Origin: a virus
Lineage: Duplodnaviria > Heunggongvirae > Uroviricota > Caudoviricetes
Direction: 5' to 3' (one strand)
Virus record (IMG/VR): IMGVR_UViG_2778261297_000008
DNA length: 57,427 bases
Shown here: positions 3,517 through 56,907 of the stretch, piece by piece
Position numbering within the stretch: the stretch's first letter is position 1
How the letters are laid out: each line of letters opens with the position of its first letter
Program-made: the position numbers and the translations under genes
Notes under the pieces: model-generated
Told to the model about the DNA's origin: nothing
What the model saw: only the letters and a program-made list of their open reading frames with translations
The model's database searches: none

Positions 3517-4043
3517 TTGCGTAACTCCGATAACTCGTTAAAGCGTTCCATAAACATCCCGTAGGCATGGCCCGGTGCCAGTGGAATCACGTTGAACATC
3601 TCTGTTGCCGGGATACCTTCCAGTACAGGCCAGAAAGAGCCATCATCAAGCCCGAGATCGCGGCGTTCGGTTGCCAGCATGATGAGATCGGCATATTTCA
3701 CGGGCGTACTCATAACTGGGGGTAACCCGTATTTCTCACGGATTACGGCGTCTATTTTTTCTTCCATTTGTTTATAGTCAGGAAGAAGGCGTTTCAGTGG
3801 TGCGGGAATGTCCTGGCAATACGCTTCTGTTGCATCATGCATTAACGCTTCAAAAGCAAATTCCTGCGGCACCAGCTGGCTGCAAAGAACCGCATGTTGG
3901 GCGACGCTGTAGAAGTGCGAAAGATGACCGGCAAAGCGACAGATATTTGAAAGGGAAACCGCGATATCGTTAATATCGATGTCGTCTTTATTTATCCTGT
4001 CATAATAAAAATGCTTCCCGGAAAAAGTTTTAATAAATGACAT
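3507..4043 (-). CDS. HD-domain phosphohydrolase, YfdR-like 5'-deoxynucleotidase
   Basis: HD motif context (QHAVLCS...HDATEAY); ORF-track start at 4070 is GTG, the ATG at 4043 has GGAG upstream. Confidence 0.65.
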   Translation of the reverse strand: MSFIKTFSGKHFYYDRINKDDIDINDIAVSLSNICRFAGHLSHFYSVAQHAVLCSQLVPQEFAFEALMHDATEAYCQDIPAPLKRLLPDYKQMEEKIDAVIREKYGLPPVMSTPVKYADLIMLATERRDLGLDDGSFWPVLEGIPATEMFNVIPLAPGHAYGMFMERFNELSELRKCA

Positions 4044-4170
4044 TTTGTTCTCCACGTATATGCGCTGCACCGCGCTGAATTCTGGTAAAAAAAATCCCTC
4101 ACCATCCGGCGATTATTGAGTAAATTACGTTTCCATAAATGCCCCCGCAGGGGCATTTGCAGTAATGAAA

Positions 4171-4995
4171 TCAGGCGATGAAAGTACCAATAAAGGTTTC
4201 TACTTTGCTGTCCTTGAATTTCTCAACAAGCAGATCACGAAATTCGTTAGCCATTTCTTCCTGCACCGCCTCCAGCTGAATAATGCGCAGAACCAGTACA
4301 GGACGATCGCCAGTGATAATACTGAGGCGTAATTTAAACGGACGTTCTTTCAGACCTTCAAACGGAACGCATTTAAATTCAAATGCCACTGGCATAATGT
4401 CTTTGGTCTTCGCTTCGACAGACTCCATCAGGGAGCGTTTGCCGCTGAAGTCATTATCTTCAAAATCAGCGGTCTGGTTTGCTTCAATCGTGATTTTACG
4501 GACAGCCGCAGCCGCTTTTGTTGCCTGAATAGCGTCACCATTAGCATCAAAGCCCACAAGATAGTCGGCCCAGTCTTCAATCCATTCTGCTAGTGACTTC
4601 TGGGAGTTACGCTCGCCGTTAACAGACAACAGAGCAGAGAACGGTGCTGTCTTTTTCAGTTTGAGTGTGGCGGTGTTATCTGCGTGACCTGGTTCATCAA
4701 TAGTACCCAGGTTAAGCACACTGACGGCACGCATATTATCAGCATCGATAAAGCAGCGGGTGCCTTCATCTGCAAGATCTTTAGAATAACGGGTAAAGTC
4801 ATCGATGCTGGCAGTGGAAAGCGCACCACGGAAACGGAAGCGATTTAAATTAAATTTTTCCAGATCATGAATGCGGAAATTCTCAGGCAATGCCACAGCA
4901 TCGGCACCAATCTTACTGATAATTTCATTAACACCCTGAGCAGAAATAAGGGCATGGATTTGATTAATTGCGGTTGCGTCTAAGTTCTGAGACAT
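4171..4995 (-). CDS. YfdQ-like (DUF2303) prophage protein
   Basis: 274-aa ORF, SD GTGAGGA upstream; recalled similarity to CPS-53 YfdQ. Confidence 0.65.
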
Positions 4996-5060
4996 AATAA
5001 GTCCTCACTATATAAAGATATTCAGTGATGAGATAAATAATCAGTTAATTAAGAACGATA

Positions 5061-5423
5061 TTAATGACCTGCTGCGCGAAGTTTTCCGTCAGGTTCACCG
5101 GCAAGAGTCAGTAATTGTCCCTGGTCTTCCTGCAGAATAGTCAGGCGACCACCGCGATTGACATACATCGGTGTTTCGGTGGTGTCTTCTTCAGAAATTT
5201 TCCCGCGGTTAGTCGGGCGAACATATGAGAGTTTGTGTTTGATTTTCACACGGTTCTCATCAAACGGTTCGATTTCCAGGTTGAGTGAGACCTTACCTTT
5301 GGTTTTCGTGTTCATCACACCGGAAGCGACTTCACTGAGAACTGCGCCGATTTTGGTTTCAAATACGCCGCCGTCCAGCTCCCCGATAAATGCCTGCACA
5401 TCAGTACTGCGTTCGCTAGCCAT
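5061..5423 (-). CDS. YfdP-like small prophage protein (start at MASERSTD... with SD GGAG)
   Basis: ORF-track frame 5061-5654; the upstream extension overlaps a structured non-coding region, so the internal ATG at 5423 is preferred. Confidence 0.5.
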   Translation of the reverse strand: MASERSTDVQAFIGELDGGVFETKIGAVLSEVASGVMNTKTKGKVSLNLEIEPFDENRVKIKHKLSYVRPTNRGKISEEDTTETPMYVNRGGRLTILQEDQGQLLTLAGEPDGKLRAAGH

Positions 5424-6121: not shown

Positions 6122-6814
6122 TTAATTGTGTCGCTTAAGGGTTTGTGACTGGCTGATTAAGACCTTTCCAAAGACCATAAACCGGTGTTCATTTTCGCTG
6201 GTAATTCCCCATTCACGGTAAATCTGGTTATCAGAAATCACCAGTAGTTTGTCAGGTATCATTTGCAGTCGTTTGACATAAATTTTATCATCAAAACCAA
6301 ATACATAGATACCATCTCCATCAAACTGATTGATACTGACATCAACGAAGATGAGATCTCCTGGCTCAATGGTTGGACACATACTGTCCCCACGAACGTT
6401 GATAACTTTAATGTGATTGGCTGGCCGTCCGCCAAACATCGATACAGCATTATCAGTTCTGTATTCAATGGCATGAATCACATCAATGACATCACCGCCC
6501 TGGATAAGGCCATTTCCCGCACTGGCACTGACATCCAGCATTTCAATACGGAATACATCCTTCACCTGCGCAACATCCTCACTAATACTGTTTTTACATA
6601 CAGTATTACTTTTGAAGTCTGAGGTAAAGAGATCAGCAATATCAACACCTAAGCTCTTGGCAATATTACTCAGGGCTTGTTCAGTGAATTGTTTCTGCTT
6701 ACCTGTTTCCAGGCGTGAGATATTCGCCGCATCCACTCCTATTGCTTCAGCGAGATCGGCGATTTTCATGTTCTTCGCCTGGCGAAGTTGTCTGACTCGT
6801 TTTCCTATGTTCAT
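6122..6814 (-). CDS. CI-like phage repressor (N-terminal HTH + C-terminal S24 LexA-like peptidase domain)
   Basis: 230 aa; N-terminal HTH (IADLAEAIGVDAANISRLETGK), C-terminal S24-like region (NVRGDSMCPTIEPGDLIFVD...KRL); divergent from the cro-like gene. Confidence 0.9.
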   Translation of the reverse strand: MNIGKRVRQLRQAKNMKIADLAEAIGVDAANISRLETGKQKQFTEQALSNIAKSLGVDIADLFTSDFKSNTVCKNSISEDVAQVKDVFRIEMLDVSASAGNGLIQGGDVIDVIHAIEYRTDNAVSMFGGRPANHIKVINVRGDSMCPTIEPGDLIFVDVSINQFDGDGIYVFGFDDKIYVKRLQMIPDKLLVISDNQIYREWGITSENEHRFMVFGKVLISQSQTLKRHN

Positions 6815-8057: not shown

Positions 8058-8077
8058 AGGTCGGTCATGAGCACTAA
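7856..8077 (+). CDS. Small phage ORF, frame B (protein-like C-terminus, GTG start)
   Basis: Translation [49 protein letters not shown] looks like a real protein; stop overlaps the start of the replication gene. Confidence 0.35.
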
Positions 8078-9038
8078 ATTAACCGGCTATGTATGGGATG
8101 GTTGCGCTGCGTCAGGCATGAAATTATCCAGCGTGGCAATTATGGCCCGCCTGGCTGATTTCAGTAATGACGAAGGTGTGTGCTGGCCATCAATTGAAAC
8201 TATTGCCCGTCAGATTGGCGCGGGGATGAGTACCGTCAGAACGGCTATCGCACGGCTGGAAGCAGAAGGCTGGTTAACGCGTAAGGCGCGTCGCCAGGGT
8301 AACCGCAATGCGTCGAATGTTTATCAGCTTAACGTTGCGAAGCTTCAGGCAGCGGCATTTTCTCAACTGTCAGATTCTGACCCGTCAAAATCTGACGCAT
8401 CAAAATCTGACCCGTCAAAATCTGACGCATCAAAATCTGACCCGTCAAAATTTGATGCGTCGAAATCTGGCAAAAAAGCGGGTTTTCACCCGTCAGAATC
8501 TGGCGGGGATCCGTCAGTAAAATCAAAACATGATCCGTCAGATAAAAAACCTTCTCGTCCGGACGCTTCGCAACCGGACACGCAGACGGCTGAACAGGAT
8601 TTTTTAACTCGCCATCCTGATGCGGTTGTATTCAGCCCTAAAAAGCGCCAGTGGGGAACGCAGGATGATTTGACCTGCGCACAGTGGCTCTGGAAAAAAA
8701 TCATTGCCCTGTACGAGCAGGCCGCCGAATGTGACGGCGAGGTGGTTCGTCCCAAAGAACCGAACTGGACAGCATGGGCAAACGAAATTCGCCTGATGTG
8801 TGTGCAGGATGGTCGTACTCACAAACAAATCTGCGAGATGTACAGCCGCGTCAGCCGCGATCCGTTCTGGTGCCGTAACGTGCTCAGCCCGTCGAAGTTG
8901 CGGGAAAAATGGGATGAGCTTTCCCTGCGCTTATCGCCGTCCGTCAGCACGCAAACAGAAAAACGTGAAGACCCGTACTTCAAAGCCAGTTACGACAACG
9001 TGGACTACAGCCAGATCCCGGCAGGATTCAGGGGGTGA
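8067..9038 (+). CDS. Phage replication initiator / replisome organiser (N-terminal winged helix; internal ori iterons)
   Basis: 323 aa; N-terminal HTH (IETIARQIGAGMSTVRTAIARLEAEGWL); internal DPSKSDASKS peptide repeats encoded by tandem 15-bp DNA repeats. Confidence 0.8.
   Translation: MSTKLTGYVWDGCAASGMKLSSVAIMARLADFSNDEGVCWPSIETIARQIGAGMSTVRTAIARLEAEGWLTRKARRQGNRNASNVYQLNVAKLQAAAFSQLSDSDPSKSDASKSDPSKSDASKSDPSKFDASKSGKKAGFHPSESGGDPSVKSKHDPSDKKPSRPDASQPDTQTAEQDFLTRHPDAVVFSPKKRQWGTQDDLTCAQWLWKKIIALYEQAAECDGEVVRPKEPNWTAWANEIRLMCVQDGRTHKQICEMYSRVSRDPFWCRNVLSPSKLREKWDELSLRLSPSVSTQTEKREDPYFKASYDNVDYSQIPAGFRG
8369..8473. repeat. Seven tandem 15-bp iterons (GTCAAAATCTGACSC-like), candidate phage origin inside the replication gene
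   Basis: Direct tandem repeats read in the sequence, with degenerate copies to ~8550; analogous to lambda ori inside gene O. Confidence 0.6.
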
Positions 9039-9040
9039 TC

Positions 9041-9529
9041 ATGAGTCTTTTGAATGACGTTCAGAAATTCATTGAAGCCCATCCGGGCTGTACTTCCGGA
9101 GACATTGCAGATGCTTTTGCTGGTTACTCACGGCAGCGCGTTCTGCAGTCAGCAAGCAAGTTACGTCAGAGTGGGCGTGTGGCTCACCGTTGTGAAGGAG
9201 ATACACGCAGACATTTCCCGCGCCTGACTGAGAGAGCGCAGGAGCCGGAACCACAATCGGTTCGTGAAACCAGACCTGTGCGCAATTTCTATGTCGGCAC
9301 TAACGACCCCCGGGTGATTTTGTGCCTGACCCGCCAGGCTGAAGAACTGGAGTCCAGGGGCTTATTCCGTCGAGCTGCAACGGTGTGGATGGCGGCATTC
9401 CGTGAAAGCCACTCCCAGCCAGAACGAAACAATTTTCTGGCGCATCGTGAGCGGTGCTTACGGAAAAGCAGCAAGCGCGCTGCATCGGGTGAAGAGTGGT
9501 ATCTGTCAGGGAATTACGTGGGGGCTTAA
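9041..9529 (+). CDS. PerC/Pch-like (ANR family) transcriptional regulator homologue
   Basis: C-terminal region EELESRGLFRRAATVWMAAF...RERCL resembles the PerC family; ORF-track start 9035 is GTG, ATG at 9041 has an SD. Confidence 0.5.
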   Translation: MSLLNDVQKFIEAHPGCTSGDIADAFAGYSRQRVLQSASKLRQSGRVAHRCEGDTRRHFPRLTERAQEPEPQSVRETRPVRNFYVGTNDPRVILCLTRQAEELESRGLFRRAATVWMAAFRESHSQPERNNFLAHRERCLRKSSKRAASGEEWYLSGNYVGA

Positions 9530-10182
9530 TGAGTAATAAATATTGCCAGGCGCTGGTGGAGCTGCGGAACAAACCAGCCCATGAACTGAAGGAAGTGGGC
9601 GATCAGTGGCGCACGCCGGACAACATTTTCTGGGGAATTAACACCCTGTTTGGCCCGTTTGTTCTGGATCTGTTTACTGATGGTGATAACGCCAAATGTG
9701 CCGCGTATTACACGGCGGAAGACAACGCGCTGGCGCATGACTGGTCAGAACGTCTTGCGGAGCTTAACGGTGCTGCCTTTGGTAATCCCCCGTACAGCCG
9801 CGCCAGTCAGCATGAGGGGCAATACATCACCGGCATGCGTTACATCATGAAACATGCCAGTGCTATGCGTGATAAAGGCGGGCGCTATGTTTTCCTGATC
9901 AAAGCTGCCACCAGCGAAGTGTGGTGGCCGGAAGATGCAGATCATATTGCTTTTATTCGCGGGCGTATCGGTTTTGAACTGCCTGCCTGGTTTATCCCGA
10001 AGGATGAGAAGCAGGTGCCGACAGGAGCTTTCTTCGCTGGTGCTATTGCTGTTTTCGACAAGACCTGGAAGGGACCGGCAATCAGCTACATCGGGCGCGA
10101 TGAACTTGAGGCATGTGGTGAGGCCTTTCTGGCGCAGGTTCGCCAGCAGGCAGAAAAACTGGTCAGGGAGATGGTGGCATGA
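9529..10182 (+). CDS. Phage Dam-family DNA N6-adenine methyltransferase
   Basis: NPPY motif (FGNPPYSR); start ATG overlaps upstream stop. Confidence 0.8.
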   Translation: MSNKYCQALVELRNKPAHELKEVGDQWRTPDNIFWGINTLFGPFVLDLFTDGDNAKCAAYYTAEDNALAHDWSERLAELNGAAFGNPPYSRASQHEGQYITGMRYIMKHASAMRDKGGRYVFLIKAATSEVWWPEDADHIAFIRGRIGFELPAWFIPKDEKQVPTGAFFAGAIAVFDKTWKGPAISYIGRDELEACGEAFLAQVRQQAEKLVREMVA

Positions 10183-10505
10183 CGACGTTAACTCAATGCC
10201 AGCAGCAGGTGCTGGATATGCTGATTTCTTATCAGAAAGAACGTGGCTTCCCGCCAACCAATCAGGAGGTGGCAACCATGCTGGGATACCGTTCGGTGAA
10301 TGCAGCGGTGGAGCATCTTCGCGCACTGGAGAAAAAAGGCGTCATCACGATAAAGCGTGGTGTGGCCCGGGGGATAACGCTTCATACCGCGGTCAAGGAC
10401 GACGACAGCGAGGCGGTCGGGATTATCCGCTCACTGCTTGCCGGTGAGGAAAACGCCAGGCTGCGTGCAGCCCACTGGTTACATGAGAGGGGTCTGAAAG
10501 TATGA
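10179..10505 (+). CDS. LexA-like N-terminal DNA-binding domain protein (no peptidase domain)
   Basis: 108 aa; LTQCQQQVLDMLISYQKERGFPPTNQEVATMLGYRSVNAAVEHLRALEKKGVI closely parallels the LexA winged-helix DNA-binding domain; no S24 domain follows. Confidence 0.7.
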   Translation: MTTLTQCQQQVLDMLISYQKERGFPPTNQEVATMLGYRSVNAAVEHLRALEKKGVITIKRGVARGITLHTAVKDDDSEAVGIIRSLLAGEENARLRAAHWLHERGLKV

Positions 10506-10891
10506 AGCTGATCCTGCCTTTCCCGCCCAGCGTGAACACGTACTGGCGACACCCCAACAAAGGGGCGTTTGCAGGTAAGAGCCTGATAAGCGCGGCGGGG
10601 CGCAAATTCCAGAGCGCGGCGTGTGCAGCAATAGTTGAGCAGTTACGTCGTCTGCCAAAACCAACGTCGGCACCTGCTTCAGTGGAGATCGTGTTGTTTC
10701 CTCCGGATAACCGGATCCGCGATCTGGACAACTATAACAAGGCGCTGTTTGACGCCCTGACCCACGCGGGTGTGTGGGAAGACGACAGCCAGGTGAAAAG
10801 AATGCTGGTGGAGTGGGGACCGGTTATCCCGGAAGGGAAGGTCGAGATCACTATCAGTAAGTACGAGAAAACGGCGGGTGCAGCCGCCTGA
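10502..10891 (+). CDS. rusA: RusA-like Holliday junction resolvase
   Basis: 129 aa; LPFPPSVNTYW and DLDNYNKALFDALTHAGVWEDDSQV motifs typical of RusA. Confidence 0.85.
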   Translation: MKLILPFPPSVNTYWRHPNKGAFAGKSLISAAGRKFQSAACAAIVEQLRRLPKPTSAPASVEIVLFPPDNRIRDLDNYNKALFDALTHAGVWEDDSQVKRMLVEWGPVIPEGKVEITISKYEKTAGAAA

Positions 10892-13128: not shown

Positions 13129-13581
13129 TTATATGTGGGGTAATATCCAGTTTATTTTCCTCCAGGTACTTGCAAATGAAACTATTGATACGATCAGGGT
13201 CGAGAAACCATATAAGGTTAGGGCGAAATCAAGTCTTACAGAGGTAATGGTGATTTTTTCATTTATAAACATTGCTATCAGCGGGAAAATACATGCTAAT
13301 ATTAAGGTAACTCCCGTAGATAACAGGTTATGAATAATTTTAGGTAAAATCTTGTTTTGTTTTAAAGCAAAAATAATTCCATCAGTACTTGAACTTGCAG
13401 AACTGAAGATGGAAATAGCGGCCAATACAAAACCAAACAAAATGCCTGCCACCGTAGATAACACTCCGGCTGTACTTAAGATATCAGAGTGAGCCATAGG
13501 CGCTAGGTATTTCCCAAGCACCCAAGCTAACAGCCCACTGATAACTATGTTAATTAAAACTTTAATAAGCATAATCATCAT
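13129..13581 (-). CDS. Small integral membrane protein (~4 predicted TM helices), second gene of an AT-rich two-gene cassette
   Basis: 150 aa with four long hydrophobic segments; SD AAGGA before ATG; 14 bp downstream of the 310-aa gene on the same strand. Confidence 0.7.
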   Translation of the reverse strand: MMIMLIKVLINIVISGLLAWVLGKYLAPMAHSDILSTAGVLSTVAGILFGFVLAAISIFSSASSSTDGIIFALKQNKILPKIIHNLLSTGVTLILACIFPLIAMFINEKITITSVRLDFALTLYGFSTLIVSIVSFASTWRKINWILPHI

Positions 13582-13595
13582 CCTTAAAAATAAGA

Positions 13596-14528
13596 TCAGA
13601 TTTCATATTGCTTTAAATACTGACCATGTTCAATTTTAGCACTGATCAAGGCAGTACGCACATCTGTTTCTTTTGCGTAGCCATCTTTTGTGTTAATGTT
13701 TTTTTCACTGATCAGAACTTGATTGAGAAGACTCCTTGAATGAGTATTTTTAGGTTCAGTGACATTAGCTTTACGTAATAAGTGAGGAACTTTTTCTATT
13801 AATTCCTTTATTCCACTTTTTACTTCATCACTGAGATAACCACGGATTAATTTACGTTGCGATGCTCTACCTCTAAGTGATAGTTTTAAATGCGAACCGC
13901 CCATCCCAGCCATCATTTCAATCATACTTTTGGAAAATGAATTCGAAAGGTCATAATCCGTTGCGCTAAAATTACGTGGAGCGGCGAGTGTAATTTCACA
14001 GCTACGTAAAGTGCTTCCTGTTTCAAGTAGTTCTTTTACACTTTCTTTTTTCCAAATTGCCTCAAACGCTACAGGTTTGTTTTCTTCAGAAAAATTGAAT
14101 AAAAGAAATGCTAAATCGGAAACTTTAGGTCCTAAATGATTTTGAGATAAAACAAGAATGTCTTTCTTATAGTAGTAAATAAAATAAGTGCGTTCGACTA
14201 TATATTTTTTATCATCTAACGGAATATTGTGCTCATCCCAATTTTCATCACCAATATAAGGTAAGTGGAAACCATCACGAGAGCATGATAGATAACCAAA
14301 ATAGAACTCCGCCTGTGCGTCTTTTTCTAAGAATACAATCTTTAATTTTTTCTTATCAAACTCAGCGGTATAAGAATTTTGCGAAGGTGTAACAATGGTT
14401 GTATACATGTTGTCAAATGCAAGTTGTGCATTTGATGTAGTTGACTTCGTTCCTGAGGAGCTTTGGAAGAAACCGATACGCATTTTTTTTTGTTTAGTTA
14501 GTGGCGCGGAAGTGGCTGTAGTAGTCAT
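13596..14528 (-). CDS. Uncharacterised 310-aa soluble protein, first gene of the two-gene cassette
   Basis: Long ORF in a visibly AT-rich block with a plausible SD; no motif I can assign (no Walker A, HEPN, PD-(D/E)xK or nucleotidyltransferase signature seen by eye). Confidence 0.75.
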   Translation of the reverse strand: MTTTATSAPLTKQKKMRIGFFQSSSGTKSTTSNAQLAFDNMYTTIVTPSQNSYTAEFDKKKLKIVFLEKDAQAEFYFGYLSCSRDGFHLPYIGDENWDEHNIPLDDKKYIVERTYFIYYYKKDILVLSQNHLGPKVSDLAFLLFNFSEENKPVAFEAIWKKESVKELLETGSTLRSCEITLAAPRNFSATDYDLSNSFSKSMIEMMAGMGGSHLKLSLRGRASQRKLIRGYLSDEVKSGIKELIEKVPHLLRKANVTEPKNTHSRSLLNQVLISEKNINTKDGYAKETDVRTALISAKIEHGQYLKQYEI

Positions 14529-15181: not shown

Positions 15182-16234
15182 ATGAAAAATACTGTAAAAA
15201 TAAACAGTGTTGATTTAATCAACGCTGATTGCCTGCATTTTATTCAGTCCCTGCCTGATGATTCCATTGACCTGATTGTTACCGATCCGCCTTACTTCAA
15301 GGTGAAACCTAACGGTTGGGACAATCAGTGGAAAGGGGACGAAGATTACCTTAAGTGGCTGGACCACTGTCTGGCCCAGTTCTGGCGGGTGTTAAAACCT
15401 GCCGGAAGCCTTTACCTGTTCTGTGGGCATCGCCTGGCATCTGATATTGAGATCATGATGCGTGAACGTTTCAACGTGCTTAACCATATCATCTGGGCGA
15501 AGCCGTCCGGACGTTGGAATGGGTGTAATAAAGAAAGTCTGCGCGCATATTTTCCTGCCACAGAGCGCGTTCTGTTTGCTGAACATTACCAGGGGCCATA
15601 TCGCGGCAAAAGTGACGGCTATGCGGCAAAAGAAAGGGAACTCAAACAGCACATAATGGCACCGCTGATATCGTATTTCAGGGATGCTCGTGCCGAACTG
15701 GGTATAACGGCAAAACAAATTGCCGAAGCCACAGGTAAGAAAAATATGGTTTCCCACTGGTTTGGTGCCAGTCAGTGGCAGTTGCCGAATGAGGCTGACT
15801 ATCGGAAGTTACAGGCACTGTTTTCCCGTATAGCGGCAGAGAAGTTTCAGGAACAACAACTGGAACAACCACACCACCAGCTGGTGGCATCTTATGATTC
15901 ACTGAATCGCAAATATTCTGAATTGCTGGATGAGTTTAAATCTCTCCGGCGCTATTTCTCCGTATCAGTCTCCGTGCCTTATACCGATGTCTGGATGCAT
16001 AAACCCGTTCAGTTCTACCCGGGTAAACATCCGTGTGAGAAACCTGCGGATATGCTCCGGCAAATAATCAATGCCAGTAGTCGACCTGGTGATCTGGTTG
16101 CTGATTTTTTTATGGGATCCGGTTCCACAATAAAAGCAGCAATGGCGCTGGGGCGTCGGGCCTTAGGTGTTGAGCTTGAGTCAGAGCGGTTTAACCAGAC
16201 AGTGAAAGAGATAAACGAGCTGGTGGGGAAATAA
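15182..16234 (+). CDS. DNA methyltransferase (N6-adenine or N4-cytosine; DPPY motif), orphan with no visible cognate nuclease
   Basis: 350 aa; DPPY (LIVTDPPYF) and FxGxG (FFMGSGST) motifs. Confidence 0.85.
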   Translation: MKNTVKINSVDLINADCLHFIQSLPDDSIDLIVTDPPYFKVKPNGWDNQWKGDEDYLKWLDHCLAQFWRVLKPAGSLYLFCGHRLASDIEIMMRERFNVLNHIIWAKPSGRWNGCNKESLRAYFPATERVLFAEHYQGPYRGKSDGYAAKERELKQHIMAPLISYFRDARAELGITAKQIAEATGKKNMVSHWFGASQWQLPNEADYRKLQALFSRIAAEKFQEQQLEQPHHQLVASYDSLNRKYSELLDEFKSLRRYFSVSVSVPYTDVWMHKPVQFYPGKHPCEKPADMLRQIINASSRPGDLVADFFMGSGSTIKAAMALGRRALGVELESERFNQTVKEINELVGK

Positions 16235-41700: not shown

Positions 41701-41789
41701 ATGGACACACCATCACCGTTAACGCTGCTGGTAACGCGGAAAACACCGTCAAAAACATCGCATTTAACTATATTGTGAGGCTTGCATAA
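38766..41789 (+). CDS. stf: Side tail fibre protein, full length, with Ala/Ser-rich repeats and C-terminal GAHTHS repeats
   Basis: N- and C-terminal regions closely match recalled lambda Stf ([27 protein letters not shown]... / ...[24 protein letters not shown]); ATG 38766. Confidence 0.93.
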
Positions 41790-42373
41790 TGGCATTCAGA
41801 ATGAGTGAACAACCACGGACCATAAAAATTTATAATCTGCTGGTCGGAACTAATGAATTTATTGGTGAAGGTGACGCATATATTCCGCCTCATACAGGTC
41901 TGCCAGCAAACAGTACCGATATTGCACCGCCAGATATTCCGGCAGGCTTCGTGGCTGTTTTCAACAGTGATGAGGCATCGTGGCATCTCGTTGAAGATCA
42001 TCGGGGAAAAACCGTCTATGACGTGGCTTCCGGCGACGCGTTATTTATTTCTGAACTCGGTCCGTTACCGGAAAATGTTACCTGGTTATCGCCGGGAGGG
42101 GAATATCAGAAGTGGAACGGCACAGCCTGGGTGAAGGATACGGAAGCAGAAAAACTGTTCCGGATCCGGGAGGCGGAAGAAACAAAAAACAGCCTGATGC
42201 AGGTAGCCAGTGAGCATATTGCGCCGCTTCAGGATGCTGCAGATCTGGAAATTGCAACGGAGGAAGAAACCTCGTTGCTGGAAGCCTGGAAGAAGTATCG
42301 GGTGTTGCTGAACCGTGTTAATACAACAACTGCACCGGATATTGAGTGGCCTGCTGTCCCTGTTATGGAGTAA
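41789..42373 (+). CDS. tfa: Tail fibre assembly protein
   Basis: 194 aa, same length and position as lambda Tfa; start overlaps stf stop. Confidence 0.9.
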
Positions 42374-55395: not shown

Positions 55396-55665
55396 AAATA
55401 TTTCTTAGGGTCATTCAAATAATTTCCCTTCCAATAAACACATATGCTGCACATTTTTACACTACTAATCCTGCACAAATGCTTTAGGAAAACACACTGA
55501 GTACACAGGAATACACAATACGTACACAGATTCACAACGGCAAATGTAGGGCAGGACATGTAAAGTAGGCCCACCGTAAACGGTGCTTCTACTTTACCTT
55601 CTCTTATTAGCAGCTGGGCTGCTCAACGGAGTCCTGCTCTGCGAGGCTGATCGGCTACCGCCTGT

Positions 55666-56112: not shown

Positions 56113-56907
56113 ATGAAGTTAATGCTCCGAGTATTTTCATCACCGAGAGGGATTTTAGCAGCTAAAAAATCATTAGCAGCTTCCTTCCTGGCGTCCATCA
56201 TGGCATTACCGGCGACAGCCGGTATCCCTGTAATCGATGGTACTAATGTGGTGCAGACCACAATCAGCGCAGTCAACAACGTTCAGGCTGTGGCTAAACA
56301 GATCCAGCAGTACCAAACGCAGCTGCAGCAGTATGAAAACATGCTGAAAAATACAGTCGCACCTGCGGCATATATCTGGGATCAGGCCAATTCGACCATC
56401 AACAAATTGTTGCAGGCGCAGGACACCCTTAATTACTACAAAAATCAAGCCGGAAGTCTTGATTCATATCTAAAACGTTATCAGGACGTGAATTACTACC
56501 GCTCATCACCGTGTTTTAACAGTAATGTTGAATGTACTACGGATGAAATTAGCGCACTGCGTAAAGCTGAGCAGAACAGTTCTGAGGCACGTAAAAAGGC
56601 CAATGACGCCGTGTTTAAGGCTCTCGACGAACAGCAGGAAACACTGCAAAGCGATGCTGATAACCTTGCAGATTTGCAAACTCAGGCAACCAGCGCACAA
56701 GGGCAAATGGAAGCTATTCAGGCCGCTAACCAGCTTGCCAGTGCTCAAACGAACCAGTTGCTGCAAATCCGCTCGCTTCTGGTATCCCAACAAAACGCTG
56801 CAGCAACACTGGCACAGGCTCAGGCCGATAAAGAGGCCCAACAAATAGTAGCTGATGAAAAAGCGTTAGCTGGCAAGAACACACCAAGCCCGAAGCGAAT
56901 TTGGTGA
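56113..56907 (+). CDS. trbJ: P-type conjugative transfer protein TrbJ (VirB5-like)
   Basis: 264 aa; signal peptide then GIPVIDGTNVVQTT...QQYQTQLQQYENMLKNT typical of TrbJ; SD GAGGTGGG. Confidence 0.8.
   Translation: MKLMLRVFSSPRGILAAKKSLAASFLASIMALPATAGIPVIDGTNVVQTTISAVNNVQAVAKQIQQYQTQLQQYENMLKNTVAPAAYIWDQANSTINKLLQAQDTLNYYKNQAGSLDSYLKRYQDVNYYRSSPCFNSNVECTTDEISALRKAEQNSSEARKKANDAVFKALDEQQETLQSDADNLADLQTQATSAQGQMEAIQAANQLASAQTNQLLQIRSLLVSQQNAAATLAQAQADKEAQQIVADEKALAGKNTPSPKRIW

Follow-up and report, generated by a model that had tools for sequence, protein, structure and literature searches.

We analysed a 57,427-nucleotide stretch of viral DNA (Duplodnaviria; Heunggongvirae; Uroviricota; Caudoviricetes; IMG/VR record IMGVR_UViG_2778261297_000008), here called the window, and found that a complete open reading frame (ORF) at 10179..10505 on the plus strand (ATG start, 108 codons and a TGA stop) encodes a protein that couples a LexA-type DNA-binding domain (DBD) to a helical C-terminal tail and lacks the S24 peptidase/dimerisation domain of LexA. 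The gene belongs to a lambdoid prophage, in which it lies between dam and rusA as an optional cassette under purifying selection. The reading we put first, tentatively and at somewhat less than an even chance, is that its product is a LexA-derived, RecA-insensitive DNA-binding protein made from the pR operon, which would dimerise through its tail and repress palindromes of the CTGT type; the binding, dimerisation, repression and targets in this reading are what we infer from comparison and prediction.

Residues 1-69 (10179..10385, plus strand) make up a LexA-type winged helix-turn-helix (HTH), as judged by family profile, predicted secondary structure, fold comparison and the strength of selection on it. 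Pfam LexA_DNA_bind (PF01726) matches the 108-aa protein over its entire profile (positions 1-65/65; E=2.9e-19; 69 bits against a cut-off of 23.7). Likewise, phmmer searches against the PDB matched it to E. coli LexA, both to the DNA-binding domain (1lea, E=7e-16) and at full length (E=1.6e-15), with phage residues 2-90 aligned to LexA 2-86, and identity to residues 1-69 of E. coli LexA is 51% over 68 residues. Using AlphaFold2 (AF2) with 21 homologues as input, we obtained a model with a predicted local distance difference test (pLDDT) score of 83.8, in which three helices (residues 6-22, 28-35 and 40-52) are joined by a two-strand wing (56-58 and 66-68). Foldseek superposed this model on the LexA-DNA complex 3jso with a root-mean-square deviation of 0.9 Å over 68 residues, at 50% identity. 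An earlier note on this DNA, made from the sequence alone, had claimed a 108-aa ORF with the N-terminal winged helix of LexA, and the profile match and the fit to 1lea and 3jso bear this out. A CARF-model match over the winged helix (PADLOC, E=3.6e-4) was marginal, and we dismissed it as a link to defence systems.

The protein ends at residue 108, and a Pfam search found no match to Peptidase_S24 (PF00717) in it. Furthermore, the NCBIfam lexA equivalog model TIGR00498 is matched at profile positions 1-91/203, scoring 70.8 bits, which is below its cut-off of 110.95. The S24 peptidase/dimerisation domain with the Ser119-Lys156 dyad that defines LexA is thus missing, as the earlier note had said, and LexA-type autocleavage on activated RecA (RecA*) is therefore impossible for the phage protein; the accompanying statement that it is not RecA-cleavable holds insofar as the S24 domain is absent. 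Judged by its sequence, the protein is not a LexA orthologue: two features were tested, and the S24 domain is absent and the set of DNA-contact residues is incomplete.

The winged helix is followed by a linker and a helical hairpin (residues 70-108; 10386..10502, plus strand), delimited by the AF2 model, the homologue alignment and a separate level of selection. AF2 predicts a low-confidence linker at residues ~69-75 and then two helices, 73-88 and 93-103, at a pLDDT of ~89. A search of 1.84 billion representatives returned full-length, tail-bearing relatives down to 42% identity (proteins P0125, P0126, P0129, P0131, P0137, P0159, P0172, P0207 and P0220); the tail is common to them, with Ala97 and Leu101 invariant and hydrophobic positions kept. 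Dimerisation, for which LexA uses the S24 domain missing here, is probably taken over by this hairpin. In line with a need for two heads per site, some homologues carry two LexA heads in tandem, which is an alternative route to two heads without the S24 dimerisation domain. These tandem LexA_DNA_bind proteins are 140-350 aa long (P0132, P0133, P0148, P0152, P0153, P0156, P0160, P0186 and P0211), and their recognition helices are far from that of LexA (e.g. NGVMCH).

The recognition helix comprises residues 40-52, VNAAVEHLRALEK (10296..10334, plus strand). The DNA contacts of LexA are listed as Ser39, Asn41, Ala42, Glu44 and Glu45 (PMC3091678, PMC13416735), the exact role of Glu44 in DNA contact being taken from secondary citations. 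The phage protein keeps four of the five (Ser39, Asn41, Ala42 and Glu45), and also retains His46, Lys53 and the wing residues Arg64-Gly65-Ile66; its codon 44 (10308-10310, GTG) encodes Val in place of Glu44. An alignment of contact residues to LexA had been proposed in the earlier note, and its outcome is divided, with four of five kept and both Glu44 (now Val) and Arg28 lost. Relative to the LexA recognition helix the E. coli clade carries two changes only, Pro40Val and Glu44Val, and Val40 is also present in bona fide LexAs of the homologue hit list; with so few changes, binding to CTGT-type sites may persist in this clade. Across the family, members are 46-62% identical to E. coli LexA, about as distant as they are from each other, and the pattern S-x-N-A-A-x-E-H is kept in 6/12 members compared. 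Taken together, the residue pattern suggests a DNA-binding surface that is LexA-like but not LexA-identical, with a shifted specificity.

Selection on the gene was assessed with 57 copies, representing 44 distinct DNA alleles, from the window and the IMG/VR loci. The ratio of non-synonymous to synonymous polymorphism (pN/pS) is 0.125 for the whole gene, 0.05 for residues 1-69 and 0.21 for residues 70-108. This pattern of synonymous and non-synonymous change indicates that the annotated frame is real and the gene functional. ORFs that overlap it (9745-10326 minus, 9935-10447 plus, 10188-10385 minus and others) were considered and set aside as mechanical, pN/pS supporting the annotated frame.

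The element carrying the gene is a lambdoid SfII/SfV-like prophage at proA-tRNA-Thr(cgt), the thrW site, and the region is 96-97% identical to the Shigella phages SfII and SfV, to mEp460 and to Stx2a/Stx2c phages. It holds an integrase, cI/cro, replication genes, a nin-like region, Q, lysis and structural genes, and this phage gene set, together with the thrW site, confirms the earlier claim that the protein is prophage-encoded. The order runs from a cI-like S24 repressor (6122-6814, minus strand) through cro, a cII-like gene, an O-like initiator with iterons, a PerC/YfdN-like gene and dam to the LexA-like gene, and then on to rusA, a KilA-N protein, DUF968/HNH, Q, morons and the lysis genes. 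The immediate upstream neighbour is a phage N6-adenine methyltransferase (Pfam Dam; 9496..10182, plus strand), whose listed ORF starts at GTG and whose counterpart in the related genome L002 is a 654-bp coding sequence in the RefSeq annotation. Downstream, in the same operon, lies the RusA Holliday-junction resolvase (10502..10891, plus strand). The stop of the dam-like gene overlaps the start of the LexA-like gene in an ATGA at 10179..10182 (GGCATGACG; plus strand), and the stop of the LexA-like gene overlaps the rusA start in another at 10502..10505 (GTATGAAG; plus strand); with ATGA overlaps at both ends, dam, the LexA-like gene and rusA are therefore translationally coupled. Consensus scans of the plus strand showed no promoter-like site near the LexA-like gene and no terminator-like site across ~7.7-12.3 kb, and in view of this lack of a promoter or terminator of its own we assign it to the pR operon. 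It would thus be a delayed-early pR product, made during lytic growth or early infection and off in a repressed lysogen.

The two ATGA overlaps are also the left and right edges of a cassette. Presence and absence were examined in 80 IMG/VR loci with a 98-100% identical cI, among which six with a complete nin region lack exactly the LexA-like ORF (L028, L038, L050, L060, L061 and L063). These gene-less loci read GTGGCATGAAGCTGATCC: a single ATGA joins the end of dam to the beginning of rusA, and the loss is confined to the 324 bp that separate the two overlaps. The dam gene is likewise optional, as other loci are without dam but have the LexA-like gene. The clean absence from otherwise near-identical phages indicates that the protein is dispensable for phage growth, which in turn argues against an essential late activator of the kind described for gp6 of phage GIL01 (discussed below) and for an accessory or modulatory role.

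Candidate operators were found in the form of SOS-type boxes. Exact ACTGT-N8-ACAGT sites occur twice in the window, where 0.08 are expected, and 0/100 shuffles gave two. The first, TACTGTATGTAAAAACAGTA on the coding strand (6586..6605), lies inside the cI-like gene, in codons 70-77, which encode the linker between the HTH and S24 domains of cI; it matches the 20-bp consensus TACTGTATATATATACAGTA at 17/20 positions, a level reached in 0/100 shuffles. The SfII cI has a box at the same codon position, reading TACTGTATATAAAAACAGTA, which we take to be the umuDC operator sequence. A cI that is only 71% identical also keeps the box, reading TACTGTATTTATAAACAGTA, and the linker residues around it differ (TVCKNS, TVYKNS and TVFINS); further copies lie at ~3623-3642 in L001, ~836-855 in L003 and ~1865-1884 in L092. 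That the box is kept amid a diverged linker suggests selection on the DNA and not on the protein. It could stall transcription of cI as a roadblock, or serve as a promoter, either internal or antisense, and this conserved, near-consensus LexA operator within cI may be more unusual than the LexA-like gene itself.

The second exact site, TACTGTAAAAATAAACAGTG (15190..15209), occupies codons 3-10 of an N6_N4 DNA methylase ORF (15182-16234, plus strand), which PADLOC assigns to MTase_II (E=3e-152) as type II-like and which is one of the morons that separate Q from the lysis genes. In L002 this box again goes with the methylase gene, and in the Kluyvera loci L093 and L094 an identical or nearly identical box lies downstream of DUF968; the ORF may be an SOS-regulated orphan methylase. 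Another, strong SOS box, CACTGTTCATAAATACAGTA, lies in the ~170-bp gap that separates rusA from a variant KilA-N gene (an allele of 67% identity) in loci L018 (position 2888), L020 (1978), L047 (2888), L058 (2888), L065 (1532) and L074 (1990), all six of which (6/6) also carry the LexA-like gene. By analogy, this arrangement resembles the LexA-controlled antirepressors of other prophages. The prophage boxes are candidate operators and are not evidence of binding.

From these observations we propose that the optional, delayed-early pR product would act as a sequence-specific DNA-binding protein, whose winged helix would read a LexA-like palindrome with CTGT-type half-sites. Recognition would probably be altered at the base or bases that LexA reads via Glu44 and Arg28, and the C-terminal helical hairpin would take over dimerisation. 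As there is no peptidase domain, activated RecA cannot remove the phage protein; after induction or infection, the uncleavable protein might then occupy and re-repress SOS-type operators vacated by host LexA, or else act independently of it. Candidate targets would be the box within cI, the one that opens the late-region methylase gene and possibly host SOS promoters.

Several observations weigh against binding to SOS-type boxes as the function of the protein. At position 44 the tail-bearing relatives have V, A, F, T, L or Y and never Glu, whereas 13/15 S24-bearing LexAs from the same hit list retain Glu44, and LexA Arg28, which is Asn in the phage protein, is replaced in all family members; judging from the alignment, these losses warn against assuming a faithful mimic of SOS-box recognition. 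The recognition helix is divergent in the Citrobacter protein P0088, which is 66% identical and reads VNTIAG, although a Citrobacter host is expected to share the enterobacterial SOS box, and in P0172 and P0207 the helices read SNAVLL and QNTVFI. Since the recognition helix differs so strongly in close relatives, binding to host SOS boxes is not a conserved function of the whole family. Furthermore, the cI box is present in 80/80 IMG/VR loci with this cI, with the LexA-like gene present or absent, so that the box does not depend on the gene and its distribution carries no information on binding. As phages without the LexA-like gene keep the cI box, host LexA alone explains the boxes. In about half of the diverse loci, the nearest 6 kb are also without an exact CTGT-N8-ACAG box.

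Comparison with LexA itself and with its non-cleavable forms places the phage protein more precisely. With the E. coli LexA DBD (1lea, 3jso) it shares the fold, the kept contact and wing residues and homology through the linker to about LexA residue 86. It differs in being without Ser119/Lys156, autocleavage and the LexA-type dimer, in having Val44 and Asn28, and in its 39-residue, hairpin-ending tail; in addition, the phage gene is optional and sits in the pR operon, whereas LexA is autoregulated behind its own SOS boxes. If it binds SOS boxes, the phage protein would work most like non-cleavable LexA variants (Ind-: LexA3 G85D and S119A; PDB 1jhf, 1jhh) and the LexA 1-84 cleavage fragment, as a LexA-type DNA-binding activity beyond the reach of RecA*; the Ind- variants differ from it in that they are still complete, dimeric repressors with an unchanged recognition helix. 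Ind- alleles block SOS induction, and the LexA 1-84 fragment binds operators weakly and dimerises on DNA. That fragment is reportedly degraded by ClpXP via its new C-terminus, as Neher et al. are said to have found in 2003; the phage protein, unlike this cleavage fragment, has a C-terminus ending …RGLKV and a tail of its own.

The only characterised relative in kind is gp6 of GIL01, a tectivirus of Bacillus thuringiensis, a precedent that the earlier note overlooked along with the tail hairpin and the wide existing annotation. It is an early, truncated LexA homologue that is 44% identical to the host LexA DBD, binds the palindrome GaCACAnnTGTGaC, which overlaps the -35 element, and is required to activate the late promoter P3, recognising a non-SOS sequence through Lys38, with a short extension that forms the wing (PMC6182141); gp6 (UniProt Q5ILC6) is thus an activator with its own operator and not a decoy for SOS, a role that the earlier note had suggested for the protein in the window. 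Like gp6, the protein described here is a phage-encoded LexA DBD without the autocleavage domain; unlike it, it has a helical hairpin, is dispensable and belongs to a Q-antiterminated, lambdoid enterobacterial phage, a comparison made with the published description of gp6.

This precedent, a truncated LexA homologue with its own palindrome, lends support to a different account, which we regard as possible if well short of an even chance: the protein may be a phage-specific regulator with its own operator, for which the LexA fold was recruited and changed in specificity, and it would activate or repress one or a few phage or host promoters unrelated to SOS. The systematic loss of Glu44 and Arg28 in the tail-bearing family fits this. 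So does the clade-by-clade variation of the recognition helix, seen against identities of 42-50% among members compared with 70-85% for the adjacent RusA (and 54-68% for DUF968), which looks like co-divergence of operator and regulator; since the LexA-like proteins diverge more than their neighbours, the gene evolves comparatively fast. A survey of inverted repeats with 5-bp arms over 17 diverse loci, however, found no conserved non-SOS palindrome in noncoding DNA, and the most-shared repeats whose position was checked were coding (in the replication gene, the Cys codons of DUF968 and the 3' end of rusA). An essential late activator is excluded by the clean absence of the gene from near-identical phages, and late genes in the prophage of the window rely on the Q antiterminator, so that what characterises gp6, a required activator of a late promoter, seems not to apply to the protein in the window, for which no phage-specific palindrome was found either. 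The persistence of S-x-N-A-A-x-E-H in about half of the members also means that recognition stays very LexA-like.

A link to DNA metabolism is suggested by the place of the gene, which is constant. In 16/16 diverse loci it lies in the nin-like region, directly upstream of rusA, its most constant neighbour, in 13/16, usually with a 4-bp overlap and in one of the 13 next to a different RusA subfamily, and directly upstream of DUF968 in the remainder; the upstream neighbour is variable (Dam, a C5 methylase, a replication protein or small ORFs). The protein might therefore be an accessory and not a transcription factor, working with RusA and DUF968/HNH, for instance in targeting or modulating junction resolution, or at the replication origin, and its fold has a weak similarity to the winged helices of replication initiators (PHROG 678, O-like, E=0.009; DnaD_N, E=0.15). 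We consider this improbable. The rusA gene is equally coupled to dam in the gene-less loci, so that RusA is independent of the LexA-like protein, and no protein of replication or recombination comes near LexA in its similarity to the phage protein. Where nin regions are mosaic, synteny may mirror the order of modules and not their function.

A third alternative concerns the first tail helix, in which 'LLAGEE' (residues 86-91) aligns with the LexA cleavage region VAA|GEP, placing Ala88-Gly89 opposite the scissile Ala84-Gly85 bond; the match to TIGR00498 likewise reaches profile position 91. On this alignment the helix is homologous to the linker and cleavage-site region of LexA, and the gene looks like a lexA cut off near codon 90 with ~18 residues added. 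The segment might accordingly serve as a protein-level decoy or pseudo-substrate, docking in S24 peptidases (LexA, cI, UmuD) or on RecA* and either inhibiting cleavage or being cleaved in trans; intermolecular cleavage by LexA and lambda cI was reportedly described by Kim and Little in 1993. We hold this to be very improbable. Gly89 is N, K or D in close relatives, distant members lack the LLAGEE motif and have TRKE, SGGD or DDQP instead, and with the Ala-Gly pair so variable a conserved role as a cleavage site is unlikely. Moreover, AF2 predicts the segment as helix and not as the docking strand of LexA, the protein has no catalytic domain in cis, and strong purifying selection falls on the DNA-binding surface. 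Finally, the existence of phages without the gene and its resemblance to a truncated lexA might suggest a decaying, functionless remnant of a captured lexA, but this reading is effectively refuted by the data on selection and conservation, as pN/pS is 0.125 over 44 alleles, an intact ORF of 106-108 aa with its tail is kept from 100% to 42% identity across prophages of Enterobacteriaceae, and 41% of complete E. coli genomes carry the gene, as do active phages such as SfII, SfV, mEp460 and Ayreon.

The LexA-like repressor proposed here is not a new gene; it is already catalogued, and the existing annotation matches our finding. Its DNA is found in 2233/5426 complete E. coli genomes (41%), at up to 4 copies per genome, and homologues occur in 63 phage records (with at least 95% identity in ~50), among them SfII (gp44), SfIV, SfV (orf42), mEp460, cdtI, Ayreon and Stx2a/2c/2k phages; the protein is 97-100% identical to the copies in SfII, SfV, SfIV, mEp460 and Stx2 phages. 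A profile scan of genome contigs, made with a 6-sequence alignment, found full-length members only in prophages of Enterobacteriaceae (Escherichia/Shigella, Citrobacter, Kluyvera, Kosakonia, Enterobacter and Silvania). PHROG 362, 'transcriptional repressor', matches residues 1-108 over profile positions 1-106/106 (E=1.4e-59), and the full-length match is accompanied by the nin-like, early-right position upstream of rusA, DUF968 and Q. Identical DNA is annotated in RefSeq as WP_000210164.1, 'LexA family transcriptional regulator', and GenBank labels include 'LexA DNA binding domain protein' (mEp460) and 'LexA-like protein'. The PHROG 362 and RefSeq entries denote the same protein family with no difference from it; their names are based on homology, and some are wrong. 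Records H43, H69, H80 and H85 are mislabelled 'SOS-response repressor and protease LexA' or 'RecA-mediated autopeptidases' despite the lack of a peptidase domain, and in RefSeq phage records the Dam methylase next to it goes under 'phosphoadenosine phosphosulfate reductase'. Pham 237 (pfam01726), catalogued from 15 Stx phages without functional work (PMC8136144), is probably the PHROG 362 family, matched by its Pfam label only. Full-text literature searches gave no functional experiment on the lambdoid protein, returning only catalogue mentions and the precedent of gp6 from GIL01. Another candidate, the prophage regulator RgdR of enterohaemorrhagic E. coli, was dropped on the strength of the literature matches, which place it in a different element, O-island 51; it also appears in a PICI paper.

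Other features of the window and of related loci were observed alongside. The O-like gene (8067-9038) holds 6.3 copies of a 15-bp unit, TCTGACCCGTCAAAA, at 8376-8469; these form a 30-bp super-unit with a 93% match, encode SDPSKSDASK repeats and are probably origin iterons that lie within the initiator gene, as those of lambda lie in O. Just before its stop (10873-10888), rusA has a GC-rich hairpin, GGCGGGTGCAGCCGCC, which encodes the C-terminal AGAAA; it is also present in L002, L090, L092, L093, L101 and L103, with differing flanking DNA, and could be an RNA structure affecting expression of the next gene. In L007 and L008, which represent another prophage, a reverse-strand pair of an RNAse_A_bac toxin and a CdiI-like immunity gene (3863-5232) is inserted in the nin region beside the distant homologue P0137, and an SOS-type box, ACCTGTACATTCATACAGTA, lies in the upstream gap (5562). 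Between Q and the lysis genes, at the position of stx in Stx phages, the minus strand of 13129-14528 encodes a 309-aa DUF6731 protein and a 149-aa ORF without a family match; PADLOC found no match in these two genes, which may be an uncharacterised cargo or defence module. At gathering level, Rfam searches identified a traJ-II RNA motif at 55549-55648 (plus strand, 87 bits), upstream of ORF 56113-56907, and the small RNA family IS009 at 42132-42330 (plus strand, 227 bits), inside ORF 41789-42373, which lies downstream of large late-region ORFs.

In its strongest form, our proposal would make the LexA-like protein a RecA-proof 'mini-LexA' that closes SOS-type operators again after lytic commitment, which we think unlikely, if far from negligible. 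If true, such a protein would block transcription through the operator within its own cI, locking the switch, and it would silence LexA-controlled antirepressors, toxins and colicins of co-resident elements and dampen host SOS functions in damaged cells. Found in 41% of complete E. coli genomes and in Stx2 phages, it would then be a widespread means by which phages modulate both the SOS response and the competition among prophages. SOS induction governs prophage induction, Shiga-toxin release, mutagenesis and antibiotic tolerance in E. coli; with a gene this common and natural pairs of phages that have and lack it, the question is open to direct testing, and a positive answer would have wide implications.

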